A DNA stretch of 64,000 bases from Octopus vulgaris (lineage: Eukaryota). The DNA lies in assembly GCA_951406725.2 (NCBI GenBank), contig OX597815.1:213156001-213220000 (forward strand), in the 5' to 3' direction. The notes beneath the pieces are model-generated. The model was not told the origin of the DNA, made no database searches, and was given only the letters and a program-made list of their open reading frames with translations. Of this stretch, positions 10,181 to 34,060 are shown one piece after another. The position numbers and the translations under genes were made by a program. Each line of letters starts with the position of its first letter. Positions within the stretch are counted from its first letter, which is position 1.

Positions 10181-10307
10181 AATTGTTGCACAGTTAGTAA
10201 TCACCAGTAAATAACTAAGTTAGTGGATTACTAACACGTACATTTAATATCCCTGAGCACTACGGCAGAACAAATAAGAAAATAAGTGTATGCTGTCAAA
10301 GTCAGGA
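10181..10307 (-). ncRNA. Box H/ACA snoRNA-like RNA, divergent copy at the 3' end of the array
   Basis: Hairpin CCTGA...TCAGG, H box ATATTA, hairpin GTAC...GTGC, ACA followed by 3 nt. Intronic and on the host strand. Confidence 0.8.
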
Positions 10308-11171
10308 TCTCTTTCAAAATTCAAATAAGTTAACCATTGAAGCCATCACAATGAATCTCATAACTAGGCTCAACCTTTTAAATCTTCATGGAAATTTCTC
10401 ATTATTGACAATTCAAGCATCATTTTACAATTTGGCACAGAAACGCTTGACAGTTTGAGTAATTTTTTTCTGCCTCACACATTCAGTGAATGACTTCTGC
10501 TACGTTTGACTCGATTTGGGTTTAAGGTAAATTTGAATGTTTTCTTTTTCGGCATGTTGAAAATATTGAAGGAAAATGTCTTAAATTTTATGCTAAATGA
10601 CATTTGAAACACTGGCCGTGAAAATTAAATTGTAAATAAATTTCAGAGTGTTAGAGACTGATGCAAGGACCCCCACAAAAACGAGATAAGGCAGAGATTG
10701 ATTTTAAAAAGTAATTTTTTGCAGATATTGTCCCCAACAAACTCTTGCAAACTGCTACCCTACACAAACACCTAGTTTCTCTCTCCCCACTCACCTCACC
10801 CTACTAAGTACCACCTGGATACCGCATCACCAATATCTATCTCTTTGTCGTAACTACTGATTCATTCTCACTCTCCCTTCAATGAGTAGCAATTGGAGCT
10901 CCTCTACAACAAAGACCTGCTCTTGCCCAAGTTTTGAACCCTTGTGAGCTGCATGGTTGCCTGTGGTGTGGGAAAAGCACCCAGTATACATTGTAACAGG
11001 GTTAGTGTTGAGAAGGACATCCAAGCCCAAGCAGGCACTGGTGGATGATACAATCTTTGGATCCATCAGACCCTGCTGAACTCTCCAGACAATGCCAGCA
11101 AGGAACATAGACATTAAACGATGATTATAAGAGACAGGCATATTATTAGTTGTTGGCAACAGAATAAACAT

Positions 11172-11303
11172 ACATGTAGCACAGTTAGTATATACCAGTA
11201 ACAATTAGATCATAGCCAGTAGATTACTAGCATGTGCACTTACTGTCCCTGAACGCACGGCACAACATATATATATAAATATATGTATGGTTCATAGTCA
11301 GGG
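11172..11303 (-). ncRNA. H/ACA snoRNA-like copy (CTATGAAC subfamily)
   Basis: Two hairpins, H box ACAGTA, ACAtgt. Confidence 0.72.
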
Positions 11304-11594
11304 CTTCTCCCCAATTTCAACTTCTGTTAGAAAAACAGTTTAAAACTTAGCAAAATCTTTTAAGTACATTTCCAATGAAAGGCAATGCAAATGAATATCG
11401 GTTTACATTTCAGATCTACACTATTACTAAATTATTTCATATCATTTATTATCTATTGAAAAAAGAAATGAATTTTAAAGTTTACACACAAAATTTGCCC
11501 AATATAAAAGCAACAAGGTTGAGGAAAGGATTACAGAAAAATTCACAAGCCAATCATCAATATATCAACACATGATAATATTATAATGTACTGA

Positions 11595-11708
11595 CAAACA
11601 TTGAGTAGACACCAGTAACAACTAGAACATACGCAGTAGATTACTAGTAAATGCATCTAATATCTCTAAACTATACAACACAATATCCTTATGCTCTCAA
11701 AGTCAGGG
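11595..11708 (-). pseudogene. H/ACA copy with damaged 3' stem and ACA box (repeated at about 13242, 14889, 16536)
   Basis: H box ATATTA retained, GTGCTACA end deleted. Confidence 0.6.
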
Positions 11709-11859
11709 TTTTTTCAACAAATTTTATAACTGACTTATATGCTACCAAGACCCACACAAAAATGAGAGAAGATTTTGATGAAAAAAAAAGAGATTCTATA
11801 ATAAACCAATGCAGATGGTCATAATATTACTTGCTGACAATAGAATAAAATAAAACAAC

Positions 11860-11985
11860 ACATGTAGCACACTATATGTACCAGTAACAATTAGAATATA
11901 ACCAGTAGATGCATGTGCATTTACTATCCCTAAACATTACGGCATAACAAATAAGAAAATATATGCATGCTGTCAAAAGTTAGGG
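11860..11985 (-). ncRNA. H/ACA snoRNA-like copy (CTTTTGACA subfamily, 5-nt deletion in 3' hairpin)
   Basis: H box ATAGTA, ACAtgt. Confidence 0.68.
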
Positions 11986-12818
11986 GTTTTTCTCCCCCAC
12001 CAAATTTCAATATTTGTCAGAAAAAGTTGAAAACTTAAGAGCAAAATCTCTTATTCTAATGATTGACAATTTTAGTTCCAGATTAACATTCGATGACTTC
12101 CTATTGCGGATGAAGCATTCAAGGATATCTTAATGATGAAAGAGAGTTTGTTTTTTCATTCACAGTTATCATAGGACTAAGAATTAATACTCAAGTGAAA
12201 TCAGTAGCCACTTCTTTAGCCCTTTCGTTACTATATTTCTGACCAAAATACACCCCTCATGAGTTTCAATTATATTCTGCAATGATGAACTCTATCTAAT
12301 CCATGCAGGCATGGAAAAGATGTTAAAACGTGGATGAGTATGATAAATTCATGCAATATAAAGCTTTTAGACAGCAACTACAGGGGTTAGCACCACAAAA
12401 CACTGCCCCAAAATCACATATTGGAAGCATGATAACATAGAAAAGCAAACAAAAAACGACAATGAAAAATAATGAAGATTCAATAATAAACCAATACTGA
12501 TGGCAACAGAATAAACAAACTCCCTTGAATGAGTAGCAATTGGAGCCCCTCTACAACAAAGACCTGCTCTTGCCCAAGTTTTGTACTCTTGTGAGCTGCA
12601 TGGTTGCCTGTGGTGTGGGAAAAGCACCCAGTATACATTGTAACAGGGTTAGTGTTGAGAAGGACATCCAAGCCCAAGCAGGCACTGGTGGATGATACAA
12701 TCTTGGGATCCATCAGACCCTGCTGAACTCTCCAGACAATGCCAGCAAGGAGCATAGACATTAAACGATGATTATGAGAGACAGGCATATTATTAGTTGT
12801 TGGCAACAGAATAAACAT

Positions 12819-12950
12819 ACATGTAGCACAGTTAGTATATACCAGTAACAATTAGATCATAGCCAGTAGATTACTAGCATGTGCACTTACTGTCCCTGAA
12901 CGCACGGCACAACATATATATATAAATATATGTATGGTTCATAGTCAGGG
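12819..12950 (-). ncRNA. H/ACA snoRNA-like copy
   Basis: Duplicate of the 11172 copy at +1647. Confidence 0.72.
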
Positions 12951-13506
12951 CTTCTCCCCAATTTCAACTTCTGTTAGAAAAACAGTTTAAAACTTAGCAA
13001 AATCTTTTAAGTACATTTCCAATGAAAGGCAATGCAAATGAATATCGGTTTACATTTCAGATCTACACTATTACTAAATTATTTCATATCATTTATTATC
13101 TATTGAAAAAAGAAATGAATTTTAAAGTTTACACACAAAATTTGCCCAATATAAAAGCAACAAGGTTGAGGAAAGGATTACAGAAAAATTCACAAGCCAA
13201 TCATCAATATATCAACACATGATAATATTATAATGTACTGACAAACATTGAGTAGACACCAGTAACAACTAGGACATATGCAGTAGATTACTAGTAAATG
13301 CATCTAATATCTCTAAACTATACAACACAATATCCTTATGCTCTCAAAGTCAGGGTTTTTTCAACAAATTTTATAACTGACTTATATGCTACCAAGACCC
13401 ACACAAAAATGAGAGAAGATTTTGATGAAAAAAAAAGAGATTCTATAATAAACCAATGCAGATGGTCATAATATTACTTGCTGACAATAGAATAAAATAA
13501 AACAAC

Positions 13507-13632
13507 ACATGTAGCACACTATATGTACCAGTAACAATTAGAATATAACCAGTAGATGCATGTGCATTTACTATCCCTAAACATTACGGCATAACAAATA
13601 AGAAAATATATGCATGCTGTCAAAAGTTAGGG
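13507..13632 (-). ncRNA. H/ACA snoRNA-like copy
   Basis: Duplicate of the 11860 copy at +1647. Confidence 0.68.
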
Positions 13633-14465
13633 GTTTTTCTCCCCCACCAAATTTCAATATTTGTCAGAAAAAGTTGAAAACTTAAGAGCAAAATCTCTTA
13701 TTCTAATGATTGACAATTTTAGTTCCAGATTAACATTCGATGACTTCCTATTGCGGATGAAGCATTCAAGGATATCTTAATGATGAAAGAGAGTTTGTTT
13801 TTTCATTCACAGTTATCATAGGACTAAGAATTAATACTCAAGTGAAATCAGTAGCCACTTCTTTAGCCCTTTCGTTACTATATTTCTGACCAAAATACAC
13901 CCCTCATGAGTTTCAATTATATTCTGCAATGATGAACTCTATCTAATCCATGCAGGCATGGAAAAGATGTTAAAACGTGGATGAGTATGATAAATTCATG
14001 CAATATAAAGCTTTTAGACAGCAACTACAGGGGTTAGCACCACAAAACACTGCCCCAAAATCACATATTGGAAGCATGATAACATAGAAAAGCAAACAAA
14101 AAACGACAATGAAAAATAATGAAGATTCAATAATAAACCAATACTGATGGCAACAGAATAAACAAACTCCCTTGAATGAGTAGCAATTGGAGCCCCTCTA
14201 CAACAAAGACCTGCTCTTGCCCAAGTTTTGTACTCTTGTGAGCTGCATGGTTGCCTGTGGTGTGGGAAAAGCACCCAGTATACATTGTAACAGGGTTAGT
14301 GTTGAGAAGGACATCCAAGCCCAAGCAGGCACTGGTGGATGATACAATCTTGGGATCCATCAGACCCTGCTGAACTCTCCAGACAATGCCAGCAAGGAGC
14401 ATAGACATTAAACGATGATTATGAGAGACAGGCATATTATTAGTTGTTGGCAACAGAATAAACAT

Positions 14466-14597
14466 ACATGTAGCACAGTTAGTATATACCAGTAACAATT
14501 AGATCATAGCCAGTAGATTACTAGCATGTGCACTTACTGTCCCTGAACGCACGGCACAACATATATATATAAATATATGTATGGTTCATAGTCAGGG
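14466..14597 (-). ncRNA. H/ACA snoRNA-like copy
   Basis: Duplicate of the 11172 copy. Confidence 0.72.
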
Positions 14598-15153
14598 CTT
14601 CTCCCCAATTTCAACTTCTGTTAGAAAAACAGTTTAAAACTTAGCAAAATCTTTTAAGTACATTTCCAATGAAAGGCAATGCAAATGAATATCGGTTTAC
14701 ATTTCAGATCTACACTATTACTAAATTATTTCATATCATTTATTATCTATTGAAAAAAGAAATGAATTTTAAAGTTTACACACAAAATTTGCCCAATATA
14801 AAAGCAACAAGGTTGAGGAAAGGATTACAGAAAAATTCACAAGCCAATCATCAATATATCAACACATGATAATATTATAATGTACTGACAAACATTGAGT
14901 AGACACCAGTAACAACTAGGACATATGCAGTAGATTACTAGTAAATGCATCTAATATCTCTAAACTATACAACACAATATCCTTATGCTCTCAAAGTCAG
15001 GGTTTTTTCAACAAATTTTATAACTGACTTATATGCTACCAAGACCCACACAAAAATGAGAGAAGATTTTGATGAAAAAAAAAGAGATTCTATAATAAAC
15101 CAATGCAGATGGTCATAATATTACTTGCTGACAATAGAATAAAATAAAACAAC

Positions 15154-15279
15154 ACATGTAGCACACTATATGTACCAGTAACAATTAGAATATAACCAGT
15201 AGATGCATGTGCATTTACTATCCCTAAACATTACGGCATAACAAATAAGAAAATATATGCATGCTGTCAAAAGTTAGGG
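15154..15279 (-). ncRNA. H/ACA snoRNA-like copy
   Basis: Duplicate of the 11860 copy. Confidence 0.68.
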
Positions 15280-16112
15280 GTTTTTCTCCCCCACCAAATT
15301 TCAATATTTGTCAGAAAAAGTTGAAAACTTAAGAGCAAAATCTCTTATTCTAATGATTGACAATTTTAGTTCCAGATTAACATTCGATGACTTCCTATTG
15401 CGGATGAAGCATTCAAGGATATCTTAATGATGAAAGAGAGTTTGTTTTTTCATTCACAGTTATCATAGGACTAAGAATTAATACTCAAGTGAAATCAGTA
15501 GCCACTTCTTTAGCCCTTTCGTTACTATATTTCTGACCAAAATACACCCCTCATGAGTTTCAATTATATTCTGCAATGATGAACTCTATCTAATCCATGC
15601 AGGCATGGAAAAGATGTTAAAACGTGGATGAGTATGATAAATTCATGCAATATAAAGCTTTTAGACAGCAACTACAGGGGTTAGCACCACAAAACACTGC
15701 CCCAAAAACACATATTGGAAGCATGATAACATAGAAAAGCAAACAAAAAACGACAATGAAAAATAATGAAGATTCAATAATAAACCAATACTGATGGCAA
15801 CAGAATAAACAAACTCCCTTGAATGAGTAGCAATTGGAGCCCCTCTACAACAAAGACCTGCTCTTGCCCAAGTTTTGTACTCTTGTGAGCTGCATGGTTG
15901 CCTGTGGTGTGGGAAAAGCACCCAGTATACATTGTAACAGGGTTAGTGTTGAGAAGGACATCCAAGCCCAAGCAGGCACTGGTGGATGATACAATCTTGG
16001 GATCCATCAGACCCTGCTGAACTCTCCAGACAATGCCAGCAAGGAGCATAGACATTAAACGATGATTATGAGAGACAGGCATATTATTAGTTGTTGGCAA
16101 CAGAATAAACAT

Positions 16113-16244
16113 ACATGTAGCACAGTTAGTATATACCAGTAACAATTAGATCATAGCCAGTAGATTACTAGCATGTGCACTTACTGTCCCTGAACGCACG
16201 GCACAACATATATATATAAATATATGTATGGTTCATAGTCAGGG
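16113..16244 (-). ncRNA. H/ACA snoRNA-like copy
   Basis: Duplicate of the 11172 copy. Confidence 0.72.
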
Positions 16245-16801
16245 CTTCTCCCCAATTTCAACTTCTGTTAGAAAAACAGTTTAAAACTTAGCAAAATCTT
16301 TTAAGTACATTTCCAATGAAAGGCAATGCAAATGAATATCGGTTTACATTTCAGATCTACACTATTACTAAATTATTTCATATCATTTATTATCTATTGA
16401 AAAAAGAAATGAATTTTAAAGTTTACACACAAAATTTGCCCAATATAAAAGCAACAAGGTTGAGGAAAGGATTACAGAAAAATTCACAAGCCAATCATCA
16501 ATATATCAACACATGATAATATTATAATGTACTGACAAACATTGAGTAGACACCAGTAACAACTAGGACATATGCAGTAGATTACTAGTAAATGCATCTA
16601 ATATCTCTAAACTATACAACACAATATCCTTATGCTCTCAAAGTCAGGGTTTTTTCAACAAATTTTATAACTGACTTATATGCTACCAAGACCCACACAA
16701 AAATGAGAGAAGATTTTGATGAAAAAAAAAAGAGATTCTATAATAAACCAATGCAGATGGTCATAATATTACTTGCTGACAATAGAATAAAATAAAACAA
16801 C

Positions 16802-16927
16802 ACATGTAGCACACTATATGTACCAGTAACAATTAGAATATAACCAGTAGATGCATGTGCATTTACTATCCCTAAACATTACGGCATAACAAATAAGAAA
16901 ATATATGCATGCTGTCAAAAGTTAGGG
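16802..16927 (-). ncRNA. H/ACA snoRNA-like copy
   Basis: Duplicate of the 11860 copy. Confidence 0.68.
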
Positions 16928-17495
16928 GTTTTTCTCCCCCACCAAATTTCAATATTTGTCAGAAAAAGTTGAAAACTTAAGAGCAAAATCTCTTATTCTA
17001 ATGATTGACAATTTTAGTTCCAGATTAACATTCGATGACTTCCTATTGCGGATGAAGCATTCAAGGATATCTTAATGATGAAAGAGAGTTTGTTTTTTCA
17101 TTCACAATTATCATAGGACTAAGAATATTCTAGTGAAATCAGTAGCCACTTCTTTAAACTAAAATGAAAATTAAAAGGACATAATATCAAATATATTTCT
17201 AAGACTCTCTCACAGGATAAACAAGAAATGAAAAGAAAGAAGTATTCATTTAGAGAAAATATTCTACTAGTTAAATAGAAAATATTAGCTAACACAAGAC
17301 AACCCATGGATGCCAGTACCATCTTCAAAAGATTTTCCATTGAGTATCTAGTTTGTTGTTACACACCCTACGTATTGTAATAAAATCAAAAATTTAAAGT
17401 TTACAAAAAGAAATTAGTCAATATAAAAACTATAATAAAGAAGCAATAAAATCCACAAGAAAACAATCAACATGTATCAGTACATGGTAATACTA

Positions 17496-17613
17496 ACATG
17501 TAGCACAGTGAGTAGTAACAACTAGAATATACCCAGTAGATTACTAGCAAGTGCATTTAGTATCCCTAAACTATACGACATAACAAAATATTTGTATGCT
17601 CTCAAGGTCAGGG
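17496..17613 (-). ncRNA. H/ACA snoRNA-like copy (CCTTGAGA subfamily, small deletion)
   Basis: H box ATACTA, ACAtgt. Confidence 0.62.
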
Positions 17614-18893
17614 TTTCTTTCTTTGATTGTATTTTTCTTTCAGCATGTTGAAAACAGAGAGAGAAAATATTCTTTTACTGTAGAGGAGACTTGAAGTAAT
17701 GGTAGTGGAAATGAAAGTGAAAGTAAAGTAATTTATGCCAACAAAGGAAGCAGCTGATAGGATATAAATATTCCAGAGTTTTAATAAATGATACCAGGAC
17801 ACACAAAAAAAGATAACGCACAAGTAAATTTCTAAAAATATTTCTCTCTTTGAACAATAACAGGAAATTATGGTTGAAGAGTCAAACATAGAAGATAATT
17901 AGAAGAGACAGCACTGCAACAGAAAAAGGTATGAAGCCATTGAAGAAATGAAAGCCTTTCTTGTATAAACAATGGAGGTGAAACACCCCAATTCCAACAT
18001 ATGACCAATAAATGTTTTCTGGAAAATACTGTGTACATTCAAGATATGAACCCTATTATTAAAAAGAATATTTTACAAAGAGATTGTGCTTAGTCCTTCA
18101 TAACGGTCATGGGGCAAATGCCTAATTTTGCATAGGACTAGGAAGATAAATGCCTACTGTATGGTGTTTTAGATAGTAATATTTCATATATGTGTGTGTG
18201 TGTATATATATATATATACATATGTACACACACATATGTATACGTATGCAAGTATGTATGTATATATGTAATGTGAGATAATAGTTTCACTATGTATATG
18301 ATATGAAACTATTATCTCACATTACAATAGAGATGTTATTGTTTCACTTTTGACTCATAATACTGAAACAGGCTAAAAGATTGCTCGAGACTCGCATTAG
18401 GCAAGAAGGTGGAAAATTATTTTAGCCCATGACACTCTATAGACCCTATGCAGTGTATGTGTAAAATTTAAATGAAATCGGCTGAGTAGTTCTAGAGTTT
18501 TAGTGATACATACTTTCTCAGCTTTATATGCATAGATATCCTTAGAACTTTGTGCATATGTTTTCATGTACTGACACATGTCCAGCCAAAGAGCAATATA
18601 TTTAGAAACAGGCAAGTGTCGATTACTGGACAGGCCTGCCTTGTAGAAAATCTGCCACAATGAACTTTATCTAATCCATGCAGGCATGGAAAAGATGTTA
18701 AAACGTGGATGAGTATGATAAATTCATGCAATATAAAGCCTTTAGACAGCAACTACAGGGTTTAGCACCACAAAACACTGCCCCAAAAACACCTATTGGA
18801 AGCATGATAACATAGAAAAGCAAACAAAAAACGACAATGAAAAATAATGAAGATTCAATAATAAACCAATACTGATGGCAACAGAATAAACAA

Positions 18894-19023
18894 ACATGTA
18901 GCACAGTTAGTGTATACCAGTAACAATTAGATCATAGCCAGTCGATTACTAGCATGTGCATTTACTGTCCCTGACCACACGGCATAACAAATAAGAAAAT
19001 ATAAGTATGGGACATAGTTAGGG
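18894..19023 (-). ncRNA. H/ACA snoRNA-like copy (CTATGTCC subfamily)
   Basis: H box ACAGTA, ACAtgt, both stems intact. Confidence 0.72.
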
Positions 19024-19168
19024 TTTTCTTTTCCTTCCAAATTTCAATATTTGTTGGAAAAACAGTTTAAAACCTTTGATAACAGCAAATTCTTCCAAGT
19101 ATATTCCTACCAAATAGCAATGCAAATGAACCATCACTAAATTATAATTCCACACTAAATTACTTCAT

Positions 19169-19510
19169 ATCATCATCATCATCATCGTCGTTTAACGTCC
19201 GTTCTCCATGCTAGCATGGGTTGGACGGTTCGACCGGGGTTCTGGGAAGCCAGAAGGCTGCACCAGGCTCCAGTCTAATCTGGCAATGTTTCTACAGCTG
19301 GATGCCCTTCCTAACGTCAACCACTCCGTGAGTGTAGTGGGTGCTTTTTACGTGCCACCTGCACAGGTGCCAGGCGGGGCTGGCAACGGCCACGGTCAGA
19401 TTGGTGTATTTTATGTGCCACCGGCACGGAAGCCAGTCGAGGCGGTGCTGGCATCGGCCACGAGTCGGATAGTGCTTTTTACGTACCACCAGACCAGGGA
19501 TCCTGGCTGG
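19169..19510 (-). mobile_element. RTE-tail retroposon (SINE or short LINE 3' end) inserted in one array unit; same family at about 20607, 40520, 40983, 55825, 57055, 57595, 63898
   Basis: Matches the 3' end of the 37409 LINE (GGCACGTAAAAAGCACC repeats, CCATGCTAGCATGG, (GAT)n). Absent from sister units. Confidence 0.85.
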
Positions 19511-20051
19511 TGTTCTGTAGAAGAAATCTATTTCTTCTATTCAAAAATATTTACAAGACCCTCTATCAGTATAATAAGAGATATTTATTGAAGCTAAAAA
19601 TATCCTAGACTAAATATGGTTAATCATGGATCACATGATGCTTTTCAAAAAATTAATCCATAGAGTATCTAATTTCATTTTACTCAGTCTCTAATGTGAT
19701 GAACTTAAATATTACAAAGAGAAATTACCCAATATAAAAACTATAACAAACTGAGGGAGAAATATATTTGGAAACAGACATGTGTTGATTACTGGACAGG
19801 CATCTCTTGTAGAAATGATAAACTTTATCTAATCCATGCAGGCATGGAAAAGATGTTAAAACGTGGATGAGTATGATAAATTCATGCAATATAAAGCTTT
19901 TAGACAGCAACTACAGAGGTTAGCACCACAAAACACTGCCCCAAAAACACCTATTGGAAGCATGATAACATAGAAAAGCAAACAAAAAACGACAATGAAA
20001 AATAATGAAGATTCAATAATAAACCAATACTGATGGCAACAGAATAAACAA

Positions 20052-20183
20052 ACATGTAGCACAGTTAGTGTATACCAGTAACAATTAGATCACAGCCAGT
20101 CGATTACTAGCATGTGCATTTACTGTCCCTGAACGCACGGCACAACATATATATATAAATATATGTATGGTTCATTGTCAGGG
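20052..20183 (-). ncRNA. H/ACA snoRNA-like copy (CAATGAAC variant)
   Basis: H box ACAGTA, ACAtgt. Confidence 0.7.
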
Positions 20184-21243
20184 CTTCTCCCCAATTTCAA
20201 CTTCTGTTAGAAAAACAGTTTAAAACTTAGCAAAATCTTTTAAGTACATTTCCAATGAAAGGCAATGCAAATGAATATCGGTTTACATTTCAGATCTACA
20301 CTATTTCTAAATTATTTCATATCATTTATTATCTAAATGTTTAGTAGGTGGAATTATTATTTCAAAATGATCTTTTAAAACAATTGCAGCATGGAAGGTG
20401 TTTATAAGCCATTTAAGAAACACACAAAAACCGTTAGATTCACTTCAACATTTAAATTTAATTTGCCAAAATATTTTCGTCACTCTGAGAGCACGACCTG
20501 TTCACTGACAAAATTCCATGCTGCATCTGAGAAAGTAACAGTTAGTACGTGGTATGTATGTGTGTATGTATGTAATTTAGCATTAGACATCTAGTTCAAA
20601 TATTCTCATCATCATCATCATTTAACGTCCGCTCTCCATGCTAGCATGGGTTGGACGGTTCAACTGGGGTCTGGGGAGCCCGAAAGCTGCACCAGTCCAG
20701 TCAGATCTGGCAGTGTTTAAACTTGCCAGACCCAACCTCTTACACTTATCTCTAAACTATACAACACAATATCCTTATGCTCTTAAAGTCAGGGATTTTT
20801 CAACAAATTTTATAACTGACTTATATGCTGCCAAGACCCTCACAAAAATGAGAGAAGATTTTGAAGAGCAGTTTTCCCAAACAGATGCATGAAAAATACA
20901 GCAGCCCAATAGAAAGTGGTATGACACCATTAAAGAAATGAAAGCCATTCTTGTATGTACTATGAGATAGAAAAATATCTATTTGGAAATCGGTGAAGCT
21001 GTAGAAAATTTGTGCCAATGTAATTTTGCAGGTCTGCAAAATAGGACAAATTCATGCAATAAAAAGCTTCCTGACAGCAACTACAAGGGTTAGTACCAGA
21101 AAAAACTGCTGAAAAAATTTCCATTGAAATCATGACAACATGGAAAAGACATAAAAATGATGAACAAAAAAAAGAGATTCTATAATAAACCAATGCAGAT
21201 GGTCATAATATTACTTGCTGACAATAGAATAAAATAAAACAAC

Positions 21244-21369
21244 ACATGTAGCACACTATATGTACCAGTAACAATTAGAATATAACCAGTAGATGCATGT
21301 GCATTTACTATCCCTAAACATTACGGCATAACAAATAAGAAAATATATGCATGCTGTCAAAAGTTAGGG
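21244..21369 (-). ncRNA. H/ACA snoRNA-like copy
   Basis: 11860-type, H box ATAGTA, ACA. Confidence 0.68.
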
Positions 21370-21901
21370 TTTTTCTCCCCCACCAAATTTCAATATTTGT
21401 CAGAAAAAGTTGAAAACTTAAGAGCAAAATCTCTTATTCTAATGATTGACAATTTTAGTTCCAGATTAACATTCGATGACTTCATATTGCAGATGAAGCA
21501 TTCAAGGATATCTTAATGATGAAAGAGAGTTTGTTTTTTCATCCACAATTATCATAGGACTAAGAATTAATACTCAAGTGAAATCAGTAGCCACTTCTTT
21601 AGCCCTTTCGTTACTATATTTCTGACCAAAATACACCCCTCATGAGTTTCAATTATATTCTGCTATGATGAACTTTATCTAATCCATGCAGGCATGGAAA
21701 AAAAGTTAAAACGTGGATGAGTATGATAAATTCATGCAATATAAAGCTTTTAGACAGCAACTACAGGGTTTAGCCCCACAAAACACTGCCCCAAAAACAC
21801 ATATTGGAAGCATGATAACATAGAAAAGCAAACAAAAAACGACAATGAAAAATAATGAAGATTCAATAATAAACCAATACTGATGGCAACAGAATAAACA
21901 A

Positions 21902-22031
21902 ACATGTAGCACAGTTAGTGTATACCAGTAACAATTAGATCATAGCCAGTCGATTACTAGCATGTGCATTTACTGTCCCTGACCACACGGCATAACAAAT
22001 AAGAAAATATAAGTATGGGACATAGTTAGGG
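21902..22031 (-). ncRNA. H/ACA snoRNA-like copy
   Basis: 18894-type. Confidence 0.72.
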
Positions 22032-22738: not shown

Positions 22739-22870
22739 ACATGTAGCACAGTTAGTGTATACCAGTAACAATTAGATCACAGCCAGTCGATTACTAGCAT
22801 GTGCATTTACTGTCCCTGAACGCACGGCACAACATATATATATAAATATATGTATGGTTCATTGTCAGGG
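22739..22870 (-). ncRNA. H/ACA snoRNA-like copy
   Basis: 20052-type. Confidence 0.7.
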
Positions 22871-23847
22871 CTTCTCCCCAATTTCAACTTCTGTTAGAAA
22901 AACAGTTTAAAACTTAGCAAAATCTTTTAAGTACATTTCCAATGAAAGGCAATGCAAATGAATATCGGTTTACACTTCAGATCTACACTATTTCTAAATT
23001 ATTTCATATCATTTATTATCTAAATGTTTAGTAGGTGGAATTATTATTTCAAAATGATCTTTTAAAACAATTGCAGCATGGAAGGTGTTTATAAGCCATT
23101 TAAGAAACACACAAAAACCGTTAGATTCACTTCAACATTTAAATTTAATTTGCCAAAATATTTTCGTCACTCTGAGAGCACGACCTGTTCACTGACAAAA
23201 TTCCATGCTGTATCTGAGAAAGTAACAGTTAGTACATGGTATGTATGTGTGTATGTATGTAATTTAGCATTAGACATCTAGTTCAAATATTCTAGCTCTT
23301 TTATATTCAAACTTGCCAGACCCAACCTCTTACACTTATCTCTAAACTATACAACACAATATCCTTATGCTCTCAAAGTCAGGGATTTTTCAACAAATTT
23401 TATAACTGACTTATATGCTGCCAAGACCCTCACAAAAATGAGAGAAGATTTTGAAGAGCAGTTTTCCCAAACAGATGCATGAAAAATACAGCAGCCCAAT
23501 AGAAAGTGGTATGACACCATTAAAGAAATGAAAGCCATTCTTGTATGTACTATGAGATAGAAAAATATCTATTTGGAAATCGGTGAAGCTGTAGAAAATT
23601 TGTGCCAATGTAATTTTGCAGGACCCATGCAAACATGGGTCTGCAAAATAGGACAAATTCATGCAATAAAAAGCTTCCTGACAGCAACTACAAGGGTTAG
23701 TACCAGAAAAAACTGCTGAAAAAATTTCCATTGAAATCATGACATGGAAAAGACATAAAAATGATGAACAAAAAAAAGAGATTCTATAATAAACCAATGC
23801 AGATGGTCATAATATTACTTGCTGACAATAGAATAAAATAAAACAAC

Positions 23848-23973
23848 ACATGTAGCACACTATATGTACCAGTAACAATTAGAATATAACCAGTAGATGC
23901 ATGTGCATTTACTATCCCTAAACATTACGGCATAACAAATAAGAAAATATATGCATGCTGTCAAAAGTTAGGG
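23848..23973 (-). ncRNA. H/ACA snoRNA-like copy
   Basis: 11860-type. Confidence 0.68.
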
Positions 23974-24506
23974 GTTTTTCTCCCCCACCAAATTTCAATA
24001 TTTGTCAGAAAAAGTTGAAAACTTAAGAGCAAAATCTCTTATTCTAATGATTGACAATTTTAGCTCCAGATTAACATTCGATGGCTTCATATTGCGGATG
24101 AAGCATTCAAGGATATCTTAATGATGAAAGAGAGTTTGTTTTTTCATTCACAGTTATCATAGGACTAAGAATTAATACTCAAGTGAAATCAGTAGCCACT
24201 TCTTTAGCCCTTTCGTTACTATATTTCTGACCAAAATACACCCCTCATGAGTTTCAATTATATTCTGCTATGATGAACTTTATCTAATCCATGCAGGCAT
24301 GGAAAAAAAGTTAAAATGTGGATGAGTATGATAAATTCATGCAATATAAAGCTTTTAGACAGCAACTACAGAGGTTAGCACCACAAAACACTGCCCCAAA
24401 AACACATATTGGAAGCATGATAACATAGAAAAGCAAACAAAAAACGACAATGAAAAATAATGAAGATTCAATAATAAACCAATACTGATGGCAACAGAAT
24501 AAACAA

Positions 24507-24636
24507 ACATGTAGCACAGTTAGTGTATACCAGTAACAATTAGATCATAGCCAGTCGATTACTAGCATGTGCATTTACTGTCCCTGACCACACGGCATAA
24601 CAAATAAGAAAATATAAGTATGGGACATAGTTAGGG
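24507..24636 (-). ncRNA. H/ACA snoRNA-like copy
   Basis: 18894-type. Confidence 0.72.
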
Positions 24637-25343
24637 TTTTCTTTTCCTTCCAAATTTCAATTTTTGTTGGAAAATCAGTTTAAAACCTTTGATAACAGCA
24701 AATTCTTTCGAATATATTCCCACCAAATAGCAATGCAAATGAACTAGCACTAAATTATAATTCCACACTAAATTACTTTGTGTTTTTAATTATCTAATGA
24801 TGTGTTCTGTAGAAGAAATCTATTTCTTCTATTCAAAAATATTTACAAGACCCTCTATCGGTATAATAAGAGATATTTATTGAAGCTAAAAATATCCTAG
24901 ACTAAATATGGTTAATCATGGATCACATGATGCTTTTCAAAAAATTAATCCATAGAGTATCTAATTTCATTTTACTCAGTCTCTAATGTGATGAACTTAA
25001 ATATTACAAAGAGAAATTACCCAATATAAAAACTATAATAAACTGAGAGAGAAATATATTTGGAAACAGGCATGTATTGATTACTGGACAGGCATCTCTT
25101 GTAGAAATGATAAACTTTATCTAATCCATGCAGGCATGGAAAAGATGTTAAAACGTGGATGAGTATGATAAATTCATGCAATATAAAGCTTTTAGACAGC
25201 AACTACAGGGGTTAGCACCACAAAACACTGCCCCAAAAACACATATTGGAAGCATGATAACATAGAAAAGCAAACAAAAAACGACAATGAAAAATAATGA
25301 AGATTCAATAATAAACCAATACTGATGGCAACAGAATAAACAA

Positions 25344-25475
25344 ACATGTAGCACAGTTAGTGTATACCAGTAACAATTAGATCACAGCCAGTCGATTACT
25401 AGCATGTGCATTTACTGTCCCTGAACGCACGGCACAACATATATATATAAATATATGTATGGTTCATTGTCAGGG
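25344..25475 (-). ncRNA. H/ACA snoRNA-like copy
   Basis: 20052-type. Confidence 0.7.
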
Positions 25476-26451
25476 CTTCTCCCCAATTTCAACTTCTGTT
25501 AGAAAAACAGTTTAAAACTTAGCAAAATCTTTTAAGTACATTTCCAATGAAAGGCAATGCAAATGAATATCGGTTTACACTTCAGATCTACACTATTTCT
25601 AAATTATTTCATATCATTTATTATCTAAATGTTTAGTAGGTGGAATTATTATTTCAAAATGATCTTTTAAAACAATTGCAGCATGGAAGGTGTTTATAAG
25701 CCATTTAAGAAACACACAAAAACCGTTAGATTCACTTCAACATTTAAATTTAATTTGCCAAAATATTTTCGTCACTCTGAGAGCACGACCTGTTCACTGA
25801 CAAAATTCCATGCTGCATCTGAGAAAGTAACAGTTAGTACATGGTATGTATGTGTGTATGTATGTAATTTAGCATTAGACATCTAGTTCAAATATTCTAG
25901 CTCTTTTATATTCAAACTTGCCAGACCCAACCTCTTACACTTATCTCTAAACTATACAACACAATATCCTTATGCTCTCAAAGTCAGGGATTTTTCAACA
26001 AATTTTATAACTGACTTATATGCTGCCAAGACCCTCACAAAAATGAGAGAAGATTTTGAAGAGCAGTTTTCCCAAACAGATGCATGAAAAATACAGCAGC
26101 CCAATAGAAAGTGGTATGACACCATTAAAGAAATGAAAGCCATTCTTGTATGTACTATGAGATAGAAAAATATCTATTTGGAAATCGGTGAAGCTGTAGA
26201 AAATTTGTGCCAATGTAATTTTGCAGGACCCATGCAAACATGGGTCTGCAAAATAGGACAAATTCATGCAATAAAAAGCTTCCTGACAGCAACTACAAGG
26301 GTTAGTACCAGAAAAAACTGCTGAAAAAATTTCCATTGAAATCATGACATGGAAAAGACATAAAAATGATGAACAAAAAAAGAGATTCTATAATAAACCA
26401 ATGCAGATGGTCATAATATTACTTGCTGACAATAGAATAAAATAAAACAAC

Positions 26452-26577
26452 ACATGTAGCACACTATATGTACCAGTAACAATTAGAATATAACCAGTAG
26501 ATGCATGTGCATTTACTATCCCTAAACATTACGGCATAACAAATAAGAAAATATATGCATGCTGTCAAAAGTTAGGG
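26452..26577 (-). ncRNA. H/ACA snoRNA-like copy
   Basis: 11860-type. Confidence 0.68.
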
Positions 26578-27110
26578 GTTTTTCTCCCCCACCAAATTTC
26601 AATATTTGTCAGAAAAAGTTGAAAACTTAAGAGCAAAATCTCTTATTCTAATGATTGACAATTTTAGCTCCAGATTAACATTCGATGGCTTCATATTGCG
26701 GATGAAGCATTCAAGGATATCTTAATGATGAAAGAGAGTTTGTTTTTTCATTCACAGTTATCATAGGACTAAGAATTAATACTCAAGTGAAATCAGTAGC
26801 CACTTCTTTAGCCCTTTCGTTACTATATTTCTGACCAAAATACACCCCTCATGAGTTTCAATTATATTCTGCTATGATGAACTTTATCTAATCCATGCAG
26901 GCATGGAAAAAAAGTTAAAACGTGGATGAGTATGATAAATTCATGCAATATAAAGCTTTTAGACAGCAACTACAGGGGTTAGCACCACAAAACACTGCCC
27001 CAAAAACACATATTGGAAGCATGATAACATAGAAAAGCAAACAAAAAACGACAATGAAAAATAATGAAGATTCAATAATAAACCAATACTGATGGCAACA
27101 GAATAAACAA

Positions 27111-27240
27111 ACATGTAGCACAGTTAGTGTATACCAGTAACAATTAGATCATAGCCAGTCGATTACTAGCATGTGCATTTACTGTCCCTGACCACACGGC
27201 ATAACAAATAAGAAAATATAAGTATGGGACATAGTTAGGG
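27111..27240 (-). ncRNA. H/ACA snoRNA-like copy
   Basis: 18894-type. Confidence 0.72.
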
Positions 27241-27946
27241 TTTTCTTTTCCTTCCAAATTTCAATTTTTGTTGGAAAATCAGTTTAAAACCTTTGATAAC
27301 AGCAAATTCTTTCGAATATATTCCCACCAAATAGCAATGCAAATGAACTAGCACTAAATTATAATTCCACACTAAATTACTTTGTGTTTTTAATTATCTA
27401 ATGATGTGTTCTGTAGAAGAAATCTATTTCTTCTATTCAAAAATATTTACAAGACCCTCTATCGGTATAATAAGAGATATTTATTGAAGCTAAAAATATC
27501 CTAGACTAAATATGGTTAATCATGGATCACATGATGCTTTTCAAAAAATTAATCCATAGAGTATCTAATTTCATTTTACTCAGTCTCTAATGTGATGAAC
27601 TTAAATATTACAAAGAGAAATTACCCAATATAAAAACTATAATAAACTGAGAGAGAAATATATTTGGAAACAGGCATGTATTGATTACTGGACAGGCATC
27701 TCTTGTAGAAATGATAAACTTTATCTAATCCATGCAGGCATGGAAAAGATGTTAAAACGTGGATGAGTATGATAAATTCATGCAATATAAAGCTTTTAGA
27801 CAGCAACTACAGGGTTAGCACCACAAAACACTGCCCCAAAAACACATATTGGAAGCATGATAACATAGAAAAGCAAACAAAAAACGACAATGAAAAATAA
27901 TGAAGATTCAATAATAAACCAATACTGATGGCAACAGAATAAACAA

Positions 27947-28076
27947 ACATGTAGCACAGTTAGTGTATACCAGTAACAATTAGATCATAGCCAGTCGATT
28001 ACTAGCATGTGCATTTACTGTCCCTGACCACACGGCATAACAAATAAGAAAATATAAGTATGGGACATAGTTAGGG
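27947..28076 (-). ncRNA. H/ACA snoRNA-like copy
   Basis: 18894-type. Confidence 0.72.
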
Positions 28077-28784
28077 TTTTCTTTTCCTTCCAAATTTCAA
28101 TATTTGTTAGAAAAACAGTTTAAAACCTTTGATAACAGCAAATTCTTCCAAGTATATTCCCACCAAATAGCAATGCAAATGAATTATCACTAAATTATAA
28201 TTCCACACTAAATTACTTCATATATTTTTTATTATCTAATGATGTGTTCTGTAGAAGAAATCTATTTCTTCTATTCAAAAATATTTACAAGACCCTCTAT
28301 CAGTATAATAAGAGATATTTATTGAAGCTAAAAATATCCTAGACTAAATATGGTTAATCATGGATCACATAATGCTTTTCAAAAATTAATCCATAGAGTA
28401 TCTAATTTCATTTTACTCAGTCTCTAATGTGATGAACTTAAATATTACAAAGAGAAATTACCCAATATAAAAACTATAACAAACTGAGGGAGAAATATAT
28501 TTGGAAACAGGCATGTGTTGATTACTGGACAGGCATCTCTTGTAGAAATGATAAACTTTATCTAATCCATGCAGGCATGGAAAAGATGTTAAAACGTGGA
28601 TGAGTATGATAAATTCAAGCAATATAAAGCTTTTAGACAGCAACTACAGGGTTTAGCACCACAAAACACTGCCCCAAAAACACCTTTTGGAAGCATGATA
28701 ACATAGAAAAGCAAACAAAAAACGACAATGAAAAATAATGAAGATTCAATGATAAACCAATACTGATGGCAACAGAATAAACAA

Positions 28785-28914
28785 ACATGTAGCACAGTTA
28801 GTATATACCAGTAACAATTAGATCATAGCCAGTCGATTACTAGCATGTGCATTTACTGTCCCTGACCACACGGCATAACAAATAAGAAAATATAAGTATG
28901 GGACATAGTTAGGG
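28785..28914 (-). ncRNA. H/ACA snoRNA-like copy
   Basis: 18894-type. Confidence 0.72.
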
Positions 28915-29264
28915 TTTTCTTTTCCTTCCAAATTTCAATTTTTGTTGGAAAATCAGTTTAAAACCTTTGATAACAGCAAATTCTTTCGAATATATTCCCA
29001 CCAAATAGCAATGCAAATGAACTATCACTAAATTATAATTCCACACTAAATTACTTCGTGTTTTTAATTATCTAATGATGTGTTCTGTAAAAACATTTAC
29101 AAGACCCTCTTTCAGTATGAGGAATGAAAATAAGAGATATTCATTGAAGCTAAAAATATTCTACAGGCTTAAGACATGAATCATGGATCACATGGAGATT
29201 TTCAAAAAATTAATCCATGGAGTATCTAATTTCATTTCACTCAGTCTGTATTGTGATGAACTTA

Positions 29265-29391
29265 ACATGTAGCACATTGAATAGTAACCAATAACAACAA
29301 GAATATATCCAGTAGGTTACTAGCAAGTGCATTTTTAATAGCACTTAACAATACAACATAACAAAATTTTTGTATGCTCTCAAAGTCAGGG
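29265..29391 (-). pseudogene. Diverged H/ACA copy with degraded H box and 5' stem
   Basis: ACA retained, no clean ANANNA, basal stem mismatched. Confidence 0.55.
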
Positions 29392-29727
29392 CTTCTTTCA
29401 ACTAACTTTATAACTGACACCAAGTGGAAAGAATGTGAGTGTATGTGTGTGTGTGTGTGTATATATATATGTATGTGTATGTGTTGTGTGTGTATGTATG
29501 TATGCAGGCTTGTTTTCATGTCTCAAGATTGTATGATAGTTGTGATTAAGTTTCATTTTCATGTAAACGACACCATTTGTATCCAGTTCTCCATGAAAAC
29601 ATGTCCAAAGAGGAACATTATATTTGGAAACATACAAGTGTTGATGACAGGATAGGCACCTGTTGCAGGTAACATTACAACTAATACAGATGGTCATAAT
29701 ATTACCTGCTGAGAACAGAATAAAATC

Positions 29728-29859
29728 ACATGTAGCACAGTTAGTGTATACCAGTAACAATGAGAATATAACCAACAGATTACTAGCATGTGCATTTACT
29801 ATCCCTAAACATTACGGCAAAACAAATAAGAAAATATATGTATGCTGTCAAAGTTAGGG
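29728..29859 (-). ncRNA. H/ACA snoRNA-like copy (CTTTGACA subfamily)
   Basis: H box ATAGTA, ACAtgt. Confidence 0.75.
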
Positions 29860-30169
29860 CTTCTTTTCCAAATTGTAATATTTGTAAGAAAAACAAAGGG
29901 CAAAAGTCTTTTAAATACATTTCTTACAATTTTCATTGTTTCTTTTCGTTTATTATCTAATGATAAAGAAATAATGATATGTTCAGTACAAGGAATACAA
30001 AAATATTCACTAGACTCTCCATCAGCATGAATAAAAAATGAAAATAAGGGATATTCATTGACAAAGATATTTTCCAGGCTAAATAAAACAAATCACCCAA
30101 TATAAAAGCTAGAATAAACCGTGGATGAGGAGTGAGTTACAAGAAAATGATAAAATACATAGTAATATG

Positions 30170-30442
30170 TGGAGGCGCAATGGCCTAGTGGTTAGGGCAG
30201 TGGACTCACGGTTTCGATTCCCAGACCGGGTGTTGTAAGTGTTTATTGAGCGAAAACACCTAAAAAGCTCCACGAGGCTCCGGCAGGGGTGGTGATCCCT
30301 GCTGTACTCTTTCACCACTCTTTCGTCAGTTGGCCTGCTCGCTTAGCCAGCGGGGTGGCGTCATTCGAAGGCTAAAACAATGCAAACGCATTGTGACCAG
30401 CGATGTGTAACTACATCTGATGGACTGGTCGGTCACGTGATG
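30170..30442 (+). mobile_element. tRNA-derived SINE with probable TSD
   Basis: TGGCCTAGTGG and GTTTCGATTCC boxes, flanked by ACATAGTAATAT/ACATAATAATAT. Confidence 0.75.
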
Positions 30443-30470
30443 ACATAATAATATTACTATGCAGTGACAA

Positions 30471-30600
30471 GCATGTAGCACCGAGTAGTCACCAGTAACA
30501 ACTAGAAGATGACCAGTAGATTACTAGCATGTGCATTTACTATCCCTAAACATTACGGCATAACAAATAAGAAAATATATGTATGCTGTCAAAGTTAGGG
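30471..30600 (-). ncRNA. H/ACA snoRNA-like copy (CTTTGACA subfamily)
   Basis: CCCTAA/TTAGGG stem, H box ATAGTA, GCAC/GTGC and CTAGTAA/TTACTGG stems, ACAtgc. Confidence 0.8.
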
Positions 30601-31405
30601 CTCTTCCCCCCACCAAATTTCAATGTTAGTAAAAAGGTTTAAACTTTAATAAGAGCAAAATCTGTTATTCTAATGAATGACAATTTAAGCTCCACATGAG
30701 CACTAAATCATTCCACATTATTCATTATCTATGATAGGTTCAGCAAAAGGAATTTATTTCTTCTATTCTACAATATTTACTGGACCCTCTGCAGGAAGAA
30801 TAAATGAAAATAGGGAATAGTCATTTGCAAAAAAAAAAAAAAAAAAAAAAGACTAAATAAGACAATGAATCATGGGTCACATAATGATTAACTCATTCTT
30901 TTATTTGCTCCAGTCATTTGACCATGGCCATGCTGGAGCACCACCTTTAGTCGAGCAAATCGACTGTAGGACTTATTCTCCCTAAGCCCAGTACCTATTC
31001 TATCGGTCTCTTTTGCTGAAGCGCTAAGTTACAGGGACGCAAACACACCAGCATTGGTTGTTAAGCGATGTTGGGAATGGGGGGGAAGAGACAGACACAG
31101 ACATATGCATATATATGACAGGCTTCTTTTCAGTTTCCGTCTACCAAATCCACTCACAACACTTTGGAAGGGCCGAGGCTATAGTAGAAGACACTTGCCC
31201 GAGGTGCCATGCAGTGGGACTGAACCTGGAACCATGTAGTTGGTAAACAAGCTATTTACCACACAGCCACTCTGATGAACTGAATTTTCAAGTTTACAAA
31301 GAAATATTACACAATATAAAATCTATAATCTGAGAGTAGAGAGCGTTTACAATAAAATCCACAAGAAAATGATCAATACATGGTAATACTACCATGTGGC
31401 GACAA

Positions 31406-31528
31406 ACATGTAGCACCGAGTAGTCACCAGTAACAACTAGAATATACCCAGTAGATTACTAGTAAGTGCATTTAATATCCCTAAACTATACGACATAACA
31501 AAATATTTGTATGCTCTCAAGGTCAGGG
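31406..31528 (-). ncRNA. H/ACA snoRNA-like copy (CCTTGAGA subfamily)
   Basis: H box ATATTA, ACAtgt. Confidence 0.75.
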
Positions 31529-32623
31529 TTTCTCTCAACACACTAAATGACTGACGCAAACTGGACTTAAATTCAAACCTTTTTTATCTCTCAGCATTTT
31601 AAAAATATAGAAAGAAAATAATTTCAATTTTACACTAGAAGACACTTTAAGCAATGGTAGTGAAAATCAAAGAAACTGAAAATAAAGAAACTTATGCACA
31701 CAAATGAAGCATTTGATACAATATTGTAAATATCCCAAACTTTTAAGAAATGATGCCAGGACACACAGAAATGAGATTAGGCAGGAATAGATTTTTAAAA
31801 ATACTCCTCTCTGAATATCTAAATAAAATTATGGCTGAGGAGACAAACACACTAGATATATGAAAGGTATAGTACTCCAATAGAATATCATATGAAACCA
31901 TTAAAGAAATATGCATTTATTATCTCAAAACATTCAGCCAAAATATGAAAATATATGTATGATTTAAAGACAAGGAATTTATATGTGAACCCCAAAATAT
32001 TCTATTAAAATGTCCTTGAATACAAATGATTTTTTACAATTATATAGCTCTGTGTTTTTCTTTTAGAAACAGCAATATTTTAGAGATTTTGATTTCAAAC
32101 AAATCTTTTTTAATAAACAACACAAATATGAAAGCAATAGTAATTTCTTCAAACTAAAACGAAAGTTAAAGGAATATAATACCAAAAATATTTACCAGAC
32201 TCTCAGTATAAAGAAATGAAAATAAAGGAATATTCATTTAGACAAAATAAAATTTACAGGCTAAATAAAATGTTAGCTAGCACAAAAAATGCATTCCATG
32301 GATCCTACAATCATCTTTGATGAAAGATTGATTCACTGAGTATCTAACATAGTTTTACACACCCTGTCTATTGTAATAAAGTTCACACAAATCAACATAA
32401 GTCCATTTTCATGCTGGCATTGGTTGGAGATTTGGACTGCAGCTGGCAACTCTCAAGACTGCCAAGCTCTCTATCTGCTTTGACATAGTTTTGTAGGGCT
32501 GGATGCCCCTTCCTCACACCAAAAATAAAATAATGCAACAAAGGTGATGGAGGTGTTACAATAAATTCTACAAGGCAATGATCAATAGCAGTCAGTACAC
32601 GGTCATATTACCATGTATCAATA

Positions 32624-32755
32624 AACTGTAGCACACTGAATAGTCACCAGTAACAACTAGAAGATGACCAGTAGATTACTAGCATGTGCATTTACTATCC
32701 CTAAACATTACGGCATAACAAATAAGAAAATATATGTATGCTGTCAAAGTTAGGG
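32624..32755 (-). ncRNA. H/ACA snoRNA-like copy (CTTTGACA subfamily)
   Basis: H box ATAGTA, ACAgtt. Confidence 0.8.
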
Positions 32756-32779
32756 GACTTTGTTGGCTAGACAATAGTA

Positions 32780-33955
32780 ATAATAATAAAAAAACAAAAA
32801 CAGTAGAATTTTGTTACCTGGATGACCTGAGCATGAGTGAATGCCAAAAAAAGATGGGGAAAAAGTTCAGGAAGTTACTGCAACTACTAACAAGGATTTT
32901 AATCTTACGGTGAAGGGAAACTGTATGTTTGTGTATAATATACACAAGCACAGTTGTGAAACAAGTATTGAATGGTGAGGATATATGAAGGCCGGAGAGA
33001 AAAAGTGGATTTAAGAGGAATTGGATGTAGTGTGCAAGAAGAGGCTTCATTGGAATAGGCATATATAAAACATATAGATAACAGTTTGGGGAAAGTGCCA
33101 AGATATCCAAGAGGAAGGCAGCTGTGGAAGACAAAAACCGAGGAAATATGGGTAGAAATGGAGGAAACTGATTTGATCTGGAAGAATGAACCCTCTAAAA
33201 AAAACACAACAAACAAGATGGAAAAGATTTGTTCAATTCATGCAAGCAAGGAAAATGGACAAAATGATTTCTAATAAGAAACAATGCTAACAAAGAATTC
33301 AGCAAGCAGGTAGAAGCAGTACAGAAGGACTCAGGTCTCAGCACAATTCTATTTATTTTCCTACTCCAAACCATAATAGAGGAATCTAATACTGTTTGTT
33401 AAAGTTCTCATACCTGAATTTTTTGAAGATAGAAGAAATTCCTAACACAGAAACAAAGCTTAGAAGCCAAAAGACCTTTATTTCAACCAAGCAAATCAAA
33501 AGTTTTAGTTAGCAGAGAAGAAGGCAACTTCTTTGCTACCTGGGAAATGGCCATGCTTGGTAAGCTTCCTTTATGTACCTAACAGCTTTTGCTACTTAGG
33601 TACCATTATTAGCAATGGTGGTGAGTGCTCTGAAAGCATAATAGCAAAAATAGTGGGTTCAAAGTTTAAGGAGCCACTGCTACTGTAGGCAACAAGATTC
33701 TTTGAGTAAAGGGTGGATTTTTGTGATATTTGTGTACAAGGTATGACGTTGCATGATAGCAAAATGTAGGTATGGAATGCAGATAAAATACAAAGGTAAC
33801 AAAGAAACGAGTTGAGTTGGATGTGTAATGTTAGTGCTTAAGAAAGGCAGAGTCCATAACAGAAGAGAGAAAAACTCAGAATTAACAAAACAAAAGTAGT
33901 GTGCAACAGAGAATACTCCACTGATGCAGACACAGAATGGTCAGGAAGTATCAAG
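32780..33955 (+). mobile_element. Old, decayed RTE LINE fragment
   Basis: Remnants of GKWPC, SFCYLG and LRVKG motifs, colinear with the 37409 element. Confidence 0.65.
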
Positions 33956-33956
33956 T

Positions 33957-34011
33957 ATTTACTATCCCTAAACAATGATGACATCTAACAAGGAAATATA
34001 TGTCAAAGTCA
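33957..34011 (-). pseudogene. 5'-hairpin-only remnant of the H/ACA unit (other half copies at about 20748, 23338, 25943)
   Basis: GACTTTGACA...TTTAGGGATAGTAAAT, then abuts decayed LINE sequence. Confidence 0.55.
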
Positions 34012-34060
34012 AAATCTGTCAAACTCCAGTATTTGTTGAGAAAGAAGTTGAAATACATAC

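Follow-up and report, generated by a model that had tools for sequence, protein, structure and literature searches.

In vertebrates, the intron that carries a small nucleolar RNA (snoRNA) of the box H/ACA kind is trimmed quickly to the protected 5' end of the RNA and more slowly to its 3' end, and the H/ACA clusters within Drosophila introns are small. The main rule in animals, as a review describes it, is one snoRNA per intron, and large tandem arrays are of the C/D class and lie in non-coding hosts (PMC11028025). H/ACA families are described as turning over fast in mammals (PMC13197249). A squid genome paper gives 41 H/ACA loci, obtained from Rfam only (PMC6962438), and the main text of an octopus small-RNA paper mentions neither snoRNAs nor eIF3 (PMC9699675). 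Here we describe a 64,000-nucleotide (nt) stretch of the Octopus vulgaris genome (contig OX597815.1, positions 213,156,001 to 213,220,000 of the forward strand; hereafter the window), in which 31 full copies of an H/ACA-like unit lie in tandem within one intron of the gene for eIF3j. No published report of an eIF3j H/ACA array surfaced in literature listings, in which subscription journals are sparsely covered.

We consider it probable that the units of the array are true snoRNAs of the box H/ACA class and form an intronic family, an explanation that takes in the origin of the copies, a predicted ribosomal RNA (rRNA) target of one unit type and the retroposition of array transcripts. By sequence the units belong to the H/ACA class, and binding by the H/ACA proteins and a mature RNA are predicted for them.

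The Host Intron and the Units of the Array

The array is contained in a minus-strand intron that runs from 34060 (GT) to 8911 (AG). Both flanking exons match the Pfam model eIF3_subunit (PF08597), with matches that are short pieces under the whole-protein cut-off, and a single contig of run X1 links the two exons directly, its loose end at 34059 agreeing with the exon sequence. The features, in the direction of transcription and all on the minus strand, are as follows.

34061..34169, minus: eIF3j exon upstream of the array (PF08597, E 3.8e-6; high-depth contigs in runs X1, X10, and X15)
8911..34060, minus: eIF3j host intron, GT..AG, 25,150 nt (Pfam exons and X1 exon–exon join)
33894..34016, minus: degenerate and incomplete copy close to the donor site (24.5 bits)
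32624..32755, minus: the array's first full unit, of type A, from which two dispersed copies derive (covariance model, retrocopy alignment)
32400..32510 (approximate), minus: 3' tail downstream of unit 32755, which we take to be like a short interspersed element (SINE); end point of retrocopies L017 and L030
31873..31978, minus: degenerate partial copy (23.8 bits)
31406..31528, minus: type B unit whose guide pocket fits helix 69 best; eight dispersed copies derive from its type
30895..31273, minus: sense high-copy SINE-like repeat with a transfer RNA-like head and an A-rich tail, which carried type B retrocopies (X20 depth >1e6)
30471..30600, minus: single type A unit
29728..29859, minus: single type A unit
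29265..29391, minus: type B unit, likely a pseudogene, in which the H box is broken (CTATTA) and the lower stem damaged
27111..28914, minus: 837-bp repeat block whose units, at 28914, 28076, and 27240, are of type D
20052..27240, minus: 2.6-kb higher-order repeat in three copies, 98% identical, each with types C, A, and D and a type B 5' half
18894..19023, minus: type D unit
17496..17613, minus: single type B unit, helix-69 pocket intact, 3' hairpin shortened
10873..17156, minus: 1647-bp higher-order repeat in four copies, 99.6% identical, each with types C, B, and A (12 units)
10181..10307, minus: last and most diverged unit, with a type A pocket
8811..8910, minus: eIF3j exon downstream of the array (PF08597, E 2.5e-4)

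An initial annotation had reported about 31 copies plus four half copies, always on the host strand, in one 25-kb intron of eIF3j. Searches with nhmmer and with a covariance model built from the copies agree on 31 full units, every one of them minus-strand, in the interval 10181–32755 (106–162 bits), and the annotation is borne out except for the partial copies, which number five (20718–20796, 23308–23386, 25913–25991, 31873–31978, and 33894–34016, all minus). The 38 covariance-model matches at E<=1 comprise these 36 copies and two weak plus-strand matches that overlap full units. Measured to 3 nt past the ACA, where the mature 3' end is assumed to lie, a unit is 118–132 nt long.

The boxes and the fold are those of an H/ACA RNA. 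The H box reads ANANNA in 30 of the 31 copies, and the claim that its changes fall only on the N positions fails for one, copy 29391 (CTATTA). By pattern, an ACA follows directly after the second hairpin in 31/31 copies; the lower stem of the 3' hairpin is degraded in the 11708 type. The minimum-energy fold has two hairpins in 10 of the 11 copies folded (z -0.95 to -3.4; copy 13355 fails, z +0.12). Across the aligned copies 91% of the cells are paired versus 26–45% in slid controls, in a count whose tested structure derives from the very sequences counted. The 3' hairpin is almost without a 5' pocket strand, and the copies divide into 14 sequence types and, by their 5' pockets, into four families (type A, 11 copies; B, 7; C, 7; D, 6).

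In run X20, which bears another organism label, contigs lie over type A and type B units, and the intron is covered along its 5' part with little sequence difference; at least the old part of the array is therefore common to a close relative. The four expression runs consist of contigs whose coverage of the intron is low, patchy, and swamped by SINE copies, which makes them uninformative on small-RNA expression.

Conservation of the Unit and Duplication of Blocks

Among 11 representative copies, mean identity is 0.785 for the unit and 0.54 for the 130-nt flanks, the latter at the random background of 0.538, and unit identity exceeds flank identity in all 55 pairs; the unit is thus recognizable where its flanks have diverged, as the initial annotation held. 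Conservation is highest in the ACA (0.94) and the hinge (0.91), followed by the upper stems (0.84–0.88), and falls to 0.62–0.64 in the apical loops.

Much of the copy number is recent. Higher-order repeats that take in the spacers hold 24 of the 31 copies (1647 bp in four copies, 99.6% identical; ~2.6 kb in three copies, 98%; 837 bp, 92–96%), and seven copies are single. The very large cluster of the initial annotation consists of real copies and is nonetheless overstated, in that 14 sequence types and four guide types have been multiplied mostly by recent duplication. Some copies share a flank and have different hairpins, which implies recombination inside units. The repeat blocks are not identical to each other (98.4–99.6%), evidence against an exact-duplication artefact of the assembly; the copy number itself rests on the assembly as given, without read depth. 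The type B copy at 17496–17613 seems derived from a 31528-like unit via a deletion between two ACATG repeats.

We posit that an old small cluster has, most likely, recently run away by unequal crossing-over. Growth to 31 copies may have needed no special selection, because the U1, U2, U5, and U6 genes are likewise multi-copy in this genome and several of them are clustered. Large local clusters of U1, U5, and U2 genes lie on C18, C25, C23, and C3.

Predicted Targets

We scanned the 5' and 3' pockets against the genome's own 18S, 28S, and 5.8S rRNA with its internal transcribed spacer (ITS) flank and against the small nuclear RNAs (snRNAs) U1, U2, U5, and U6. The type B 5' pocket, ACCTTGAGA plus GTCGTA, pairs over 9+6 nt (15 bp) around U3360 of the genome's own 28S rRNA, in helix 69, with the uridine 16 nt from the H box. 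A bipartite pocket with its target uridine 13–16 nt from the box occurs in type B alone (7/31 copies, one with the broken H box). Flanking letters equate U3360 with human U3747, which is described as a proven H/ACA target within an allowed spacing of 13–16 nt (PMC8763049). According to the same source, SNORA53 modifies U3747 through CCUUAGA against UCUUAAGG, and an A inserted opposite the bulged uridine (the U13+A mutant) limits the SNORA53 guide to U3747 (PMC8763049). The type B match is credible because it falls on this known modified site, and from the pairing we predict that this helix-69 uridine, the equivalent of human U3747, is pseudouridylated under the guidance of the 5' hairpin of type B.

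Several other candidate pairings were rejected. Type A has a canonical 4+7 Watson–Crick pocket, 14 nt from the box, on 28S U3922, yet the match is at chance level (equalled by 15–32/200 shuffles under strict rules and 177–248/500 under relaxed rules). The matches of type C to 28S 3799/3828, of type D to 28S 3545 (50/500 shuffles), and of the 3' hairpin to 18S U27 (14/200 shuffles, with pairing that uses stem bases) are likewise not beyond chance. Types A, C, and D gave only short, unscored matches to U1. All 3' hairpins gave nothing beyond chance in the rRNA and snRNA scans, and the 3' hairpin probably guides nothing. The genome's own 18S rRNA (L011, G000:C20) is long, at 2643 nt, and changed at normally conserved positions near 1495–1535.

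The orphan pockets invite a more ambitious reading, in which this cephalopod intron would be a selected, diversifying guide library, evolving and shuffled by recombination on one H/ACA scaffold. The A, C, and D pockets (24 copies) would pseudouridylate new messenger RNA (mRNA) or lineage-specific rRNA sites and form a second RNA-rewriting layer beside adenosine-to-inosine editing, with the RNAs freed by a cutting step undescribed for animal polycistronic introns. The clustering of changes in loops and pockets, with boxes and stems preserved, the existence of four pocket families, the canonical form of the type A pocket on U3922, and the altered 18S rRNA are all consistent with this. We regard it as unlikely, however, given that the type A match to 28S rRNA is at chance level, that the type C and type D pockets fold largely shut, and that the copy number comes from whole-block duplication in a genome that also has U1, U2, U5, and U6 in many copies and in clusters.

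Dispersed Retrocopies

With two units, each taken together with the linker downstream of it, as queries, DNA searches of the 2.8-Gb genome identified at least 10 outside loci, and every one traces back to the eIF3j intron. When all 10 are aligned, their 5' ends lie, relative to the start of the unit, at -1, 3, 4, 9, 10, 26, 29, 132, 132, and 147 nt; half begin within -1 to +10 nt of the predicted 5' end of the unit, and none (0/10) begins further upstream. For both donors, the 230 nt upstream of the unit match nothing in the genome other than themselves, and the downstream linkers match eight and two outside loci. On the 3' side, nine of the 10 copies continue into a SINE-like repeat that shares their orientation. 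Had the uncut intron served as template, the five copies that extend to the start of the unit would all end within 12 nt with a probability of roughly 1e-7, an estimate that assumes independent retroposition events.

Mammalian type-2 snoRNA retroposons are described as starting at the mature 5' end and carrying downstream intron sequence (PMC1687206), and a similar pattern is given elsewhere (PMC1802619). We infer an RNA with a defined 5' end because the 5' ends of the retrocopies stop at the unit start, matching these retroposons; the boundaries, though indirect, are the strongest sign found here of such an RNA in the germ line, with its 5' end at the unit, an internal unit included. An 8-bp hairpin with a four-base loop stands just 3' of the ACA in units 32755, 31528, and 30600, and three retrocopies begin at or inside it; this hairpin may be a cutting signal or a stop for reverse transcriptase. 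An origin of the retrocopies from RNA polymerase III transcripts was considered and set aside, with a T4 run at unit positions 25–29 arguing weakly against it. One 5'-truncated type B copy (L025:1900-2420, G000:C4), which a later repeat has interrupted, directly follows an exon of what we take to be transketolase.

The donors found are exclusively the two 5'-most full units, and the copies are 3'-extended; a genome search with a type D unit and its flank yielded no retrocopy. This pattern would also fit a reading in which the copies remain uncut, with exonucleases halting at the outer units to leave long H/ACA-ended snoRNA-related long non-coding RNAs (sno-lncRNAs) of up to ~22.6 kb that bind many dyskerin complexes. 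Precedent exists in vertebrate introns with two snoRNAs, which are described as giving sno-lncRNAs such as SLERT (PMC11028025). Against it, the second unit, 31528, has a defined 5' end despite the upstream unit 32755, which would require an internal cut or a bypass, and the donor bias is also explicable by the sense SINE tails and by age. We find this account quite doubtful.

Weighing the H/ACA Assignment

The H/ACA architecture proposed by the initial annotation is upheld by 10 of 11 folds and by the boxes, with further support from the pocket for the 28S site and the 5' ends of the retrocopies. A number of results weigh against our interpretation. Rfam scans of the units at the gathering score matched 0 families, with no snoRNA or microRNA (miRNA) family among them, and scans by E-value gave weak matches alone. 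RNAalifold missed the 5' hairpin on the same alignment, and covariation is weak: four pairs change on both sides, these compensatory changes being equalled in 26/500 shuffles, and 18–94/500 shuffles equal the observed measures. Pocket strands (0.71–0.76) are less conserved than stems, unlike those of a single-target guide family, and for types A, C, and D (24/31 copies) the scan of 18S, 28S, the 5.8S/ITS flank, U2, U5, and U6 gave no significant target. For type B, the helix-69 score is equalled by 7/500 shuffles for copies 31528 and 17613 and by 27–34/500 for other type B sequences, counts uncorrected for the 14 sequence types scanned; the pairing requires the upper stem to be partly open; and under a strict closing-pair rule 31528, 17613, and 29391 lose the match and the 11708 type alone keeps it (1/200). 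Among the retrocopies, no target-site duplication was seen by eye, though SINE tails are present, and the dispersed type B copies share ~30 nt missing from the present flank of 31528. The shared segment suggests an older state of the donor, or a master copy for some of the copies, which would weaken the ~1e-7 estimate.

Weak covariation, several broken or partial copies, and young blocks that are 92–99.6% identical with spacers included could also be read as a non-functional satellite or transposon relic that merely resembles an H/ACA RNA. The initial annotation had named two outcomes that would speak for such a reading: a unit no better conserved than its spacers, and a unit scattered through the genome as a transposon fragment. 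We found the unit well above its flanks in every pair compared, all copies strictly in host-strand orientation, and only 10 outside copies, all from the eIF3j intron and with one-sided boundaries, and a relic is in our judgment very improbable. Still harder to credit is a cluster of microRNA precursors. The intronic hairpins do have a fitting length and weak Rfam miRNA matches (E 0.1–9), but they are paired, have large internal loops and H and ACA boxes at fixed places, match no miRNA family at the gathering score, and have retrocopy 5' ends that mark the whole unit and not a single arm.

The favored explanation, a family of intronic H/ACA snoRNAs, would work as follows. The eIF3j pre-mRNA would carry the units, on whose two-hairpin fold dyskerin, Nop10, and Nhp2 would assemble; after splicing, nucleases would trim the intron to the protected 5' end fast and to the 3' end more slowly, by analogy with vertebrate H/ACA RNAs. 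The type B 5' hairpin would then guide pseudouridylation of 28S helix 69, as its pairing predicts. In an older cluster of ~7–11 paralogues, selection preserved the units as the spacers decayed, and unequal crossing-over, partly inside units, would have multiplied the observed blocks to 31 copies. Types A, C, and D would be pocket variants on the shared scaffold, most likely drifting or orphan guides. Intermediates matured at the 5' end and extended at the 3' end into a SINE tail, as the boundaries of the copies suggest, would have retroposed at least several times. The polycistronic release assumed in the initial annotation goes too far, and a separate RNA from each copy is putative.

An array of 31 H/ACA copies in a single coding-gene intron raises the question of how internal copies obtain their ends if nucleases trimming inward from both intron termini are halted by the outermost units. 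The array is a natural series of guide variants for following the loss or gain of targets, and type B may be a second way of making the helix-69 pseudouridine. The 0 Rfam matches also caution that an annotation based on Rfam overlooks such loci wholly.

Surroundings of the Host Gene

A reverse-transcriptase-like fragment of a long interspersed element (window 37379–38383, plus strand) lies within the first introns of eIF3j and has an open reading frame (ORF) with a YADD motif. MMS22L (window 51350–60206, plus strand; Pfam) is divergent from eIF3j and has unusually long coding stretches, with ORFs of 394 and 778 amino acids. The end of the window holds an acidic, repetitive ORF of 248 amino acids (63007–63753, minus strand).

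Comparison with Known Systems

Type A shares with SNORA57 (U99), its best weak Rfam snoRNA match (E 1.2), the sequence CCGUAAUGU before the H box. We reject homology on a score of 11.6 bits versus a cut-off of 40, with no RF00191 match genome-wide. The 18S position altered here is one that we take to be the 5' target site of SNORA57.

SNORA53 is close to type B in predicted function. Both, on the published description of SNORA53, have a 5' hairpin with CCUU..AGA upstream and a 5–6 nt downstream antisense element on the same stretch of 28S helix 69 (PMC8763049), a loose stem above the pocket, a 3' hairpin without a target, and an intronic location. They differ in length (118–132 nt vs. the 248 positions of the Rfam model), in spacing (16 nt vs. 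14), and in host (eIF3j vs. SLC25A3), and an extra G in type B pairs the uridine that SNORA53 bulges, as in the U13+A mutant that makes the U3747 pseudouridine alone. A second SNORA53 register, U3749, would by inspection need GA before the guide and an 18-nt spacing, and no match to 28S 3362 was found among the top two per copy. SNORA53 is listed for the sea hare in an S1 legend (PMC8763049). A genome search with its model, RF00563, gave 0 matches at E<=10, with 32 of 165,269 candidates scored, and the family is absent from the Rfam matches of the units; a separate SNORA53 gene was found neither by model nor by exact pattern genome-wide, both searches being weak and not implying absence. We predict that type B does the same job as SNORA53, with a sequence that the SNORA53 family model does not recognize.

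The retrocopies resemble type-2 snoRNA retroposons, which are described as starting at the mature 5' end and carrying downstream intron (Weber 2006, PMC1687206), and the platypus snoRTE, in which an H/ACA RNA is joined to a retroelement tail (PMC4233971). Those described here differ in ending in a resident SINE tail and not in poly(A), in having no clear target-site duplication, and in numbering 10 copies found, with no amplified family.

Intronic clusters of Drosophila and plants are similar in holding several snoRNAs per intron, as their descriptions have it (PMC11028025, PMC12205218), whereas the eIF3j array has 31 copies over 22.6 kb. Its dynamics resemble those reported for SNORD113/114 and SNORD115/116: a large local repeat with subfamilies, birth and death with non-allelic recombination, and many orphan copies (PMC11028025). 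Those arrays, however, are of the C/D class, and their hosts are imprinted non-coding genes with repeated introns (PMC11028025), whereas the eIF3j array is of the H/ACA class and is confined to a single intron of a housekeeping gene that codes for protein. Insofar as the cited descriptions cover the known kinds of array, the locus extends them, and an H/ACA array of 31 copies in one coding intron appears to be new.

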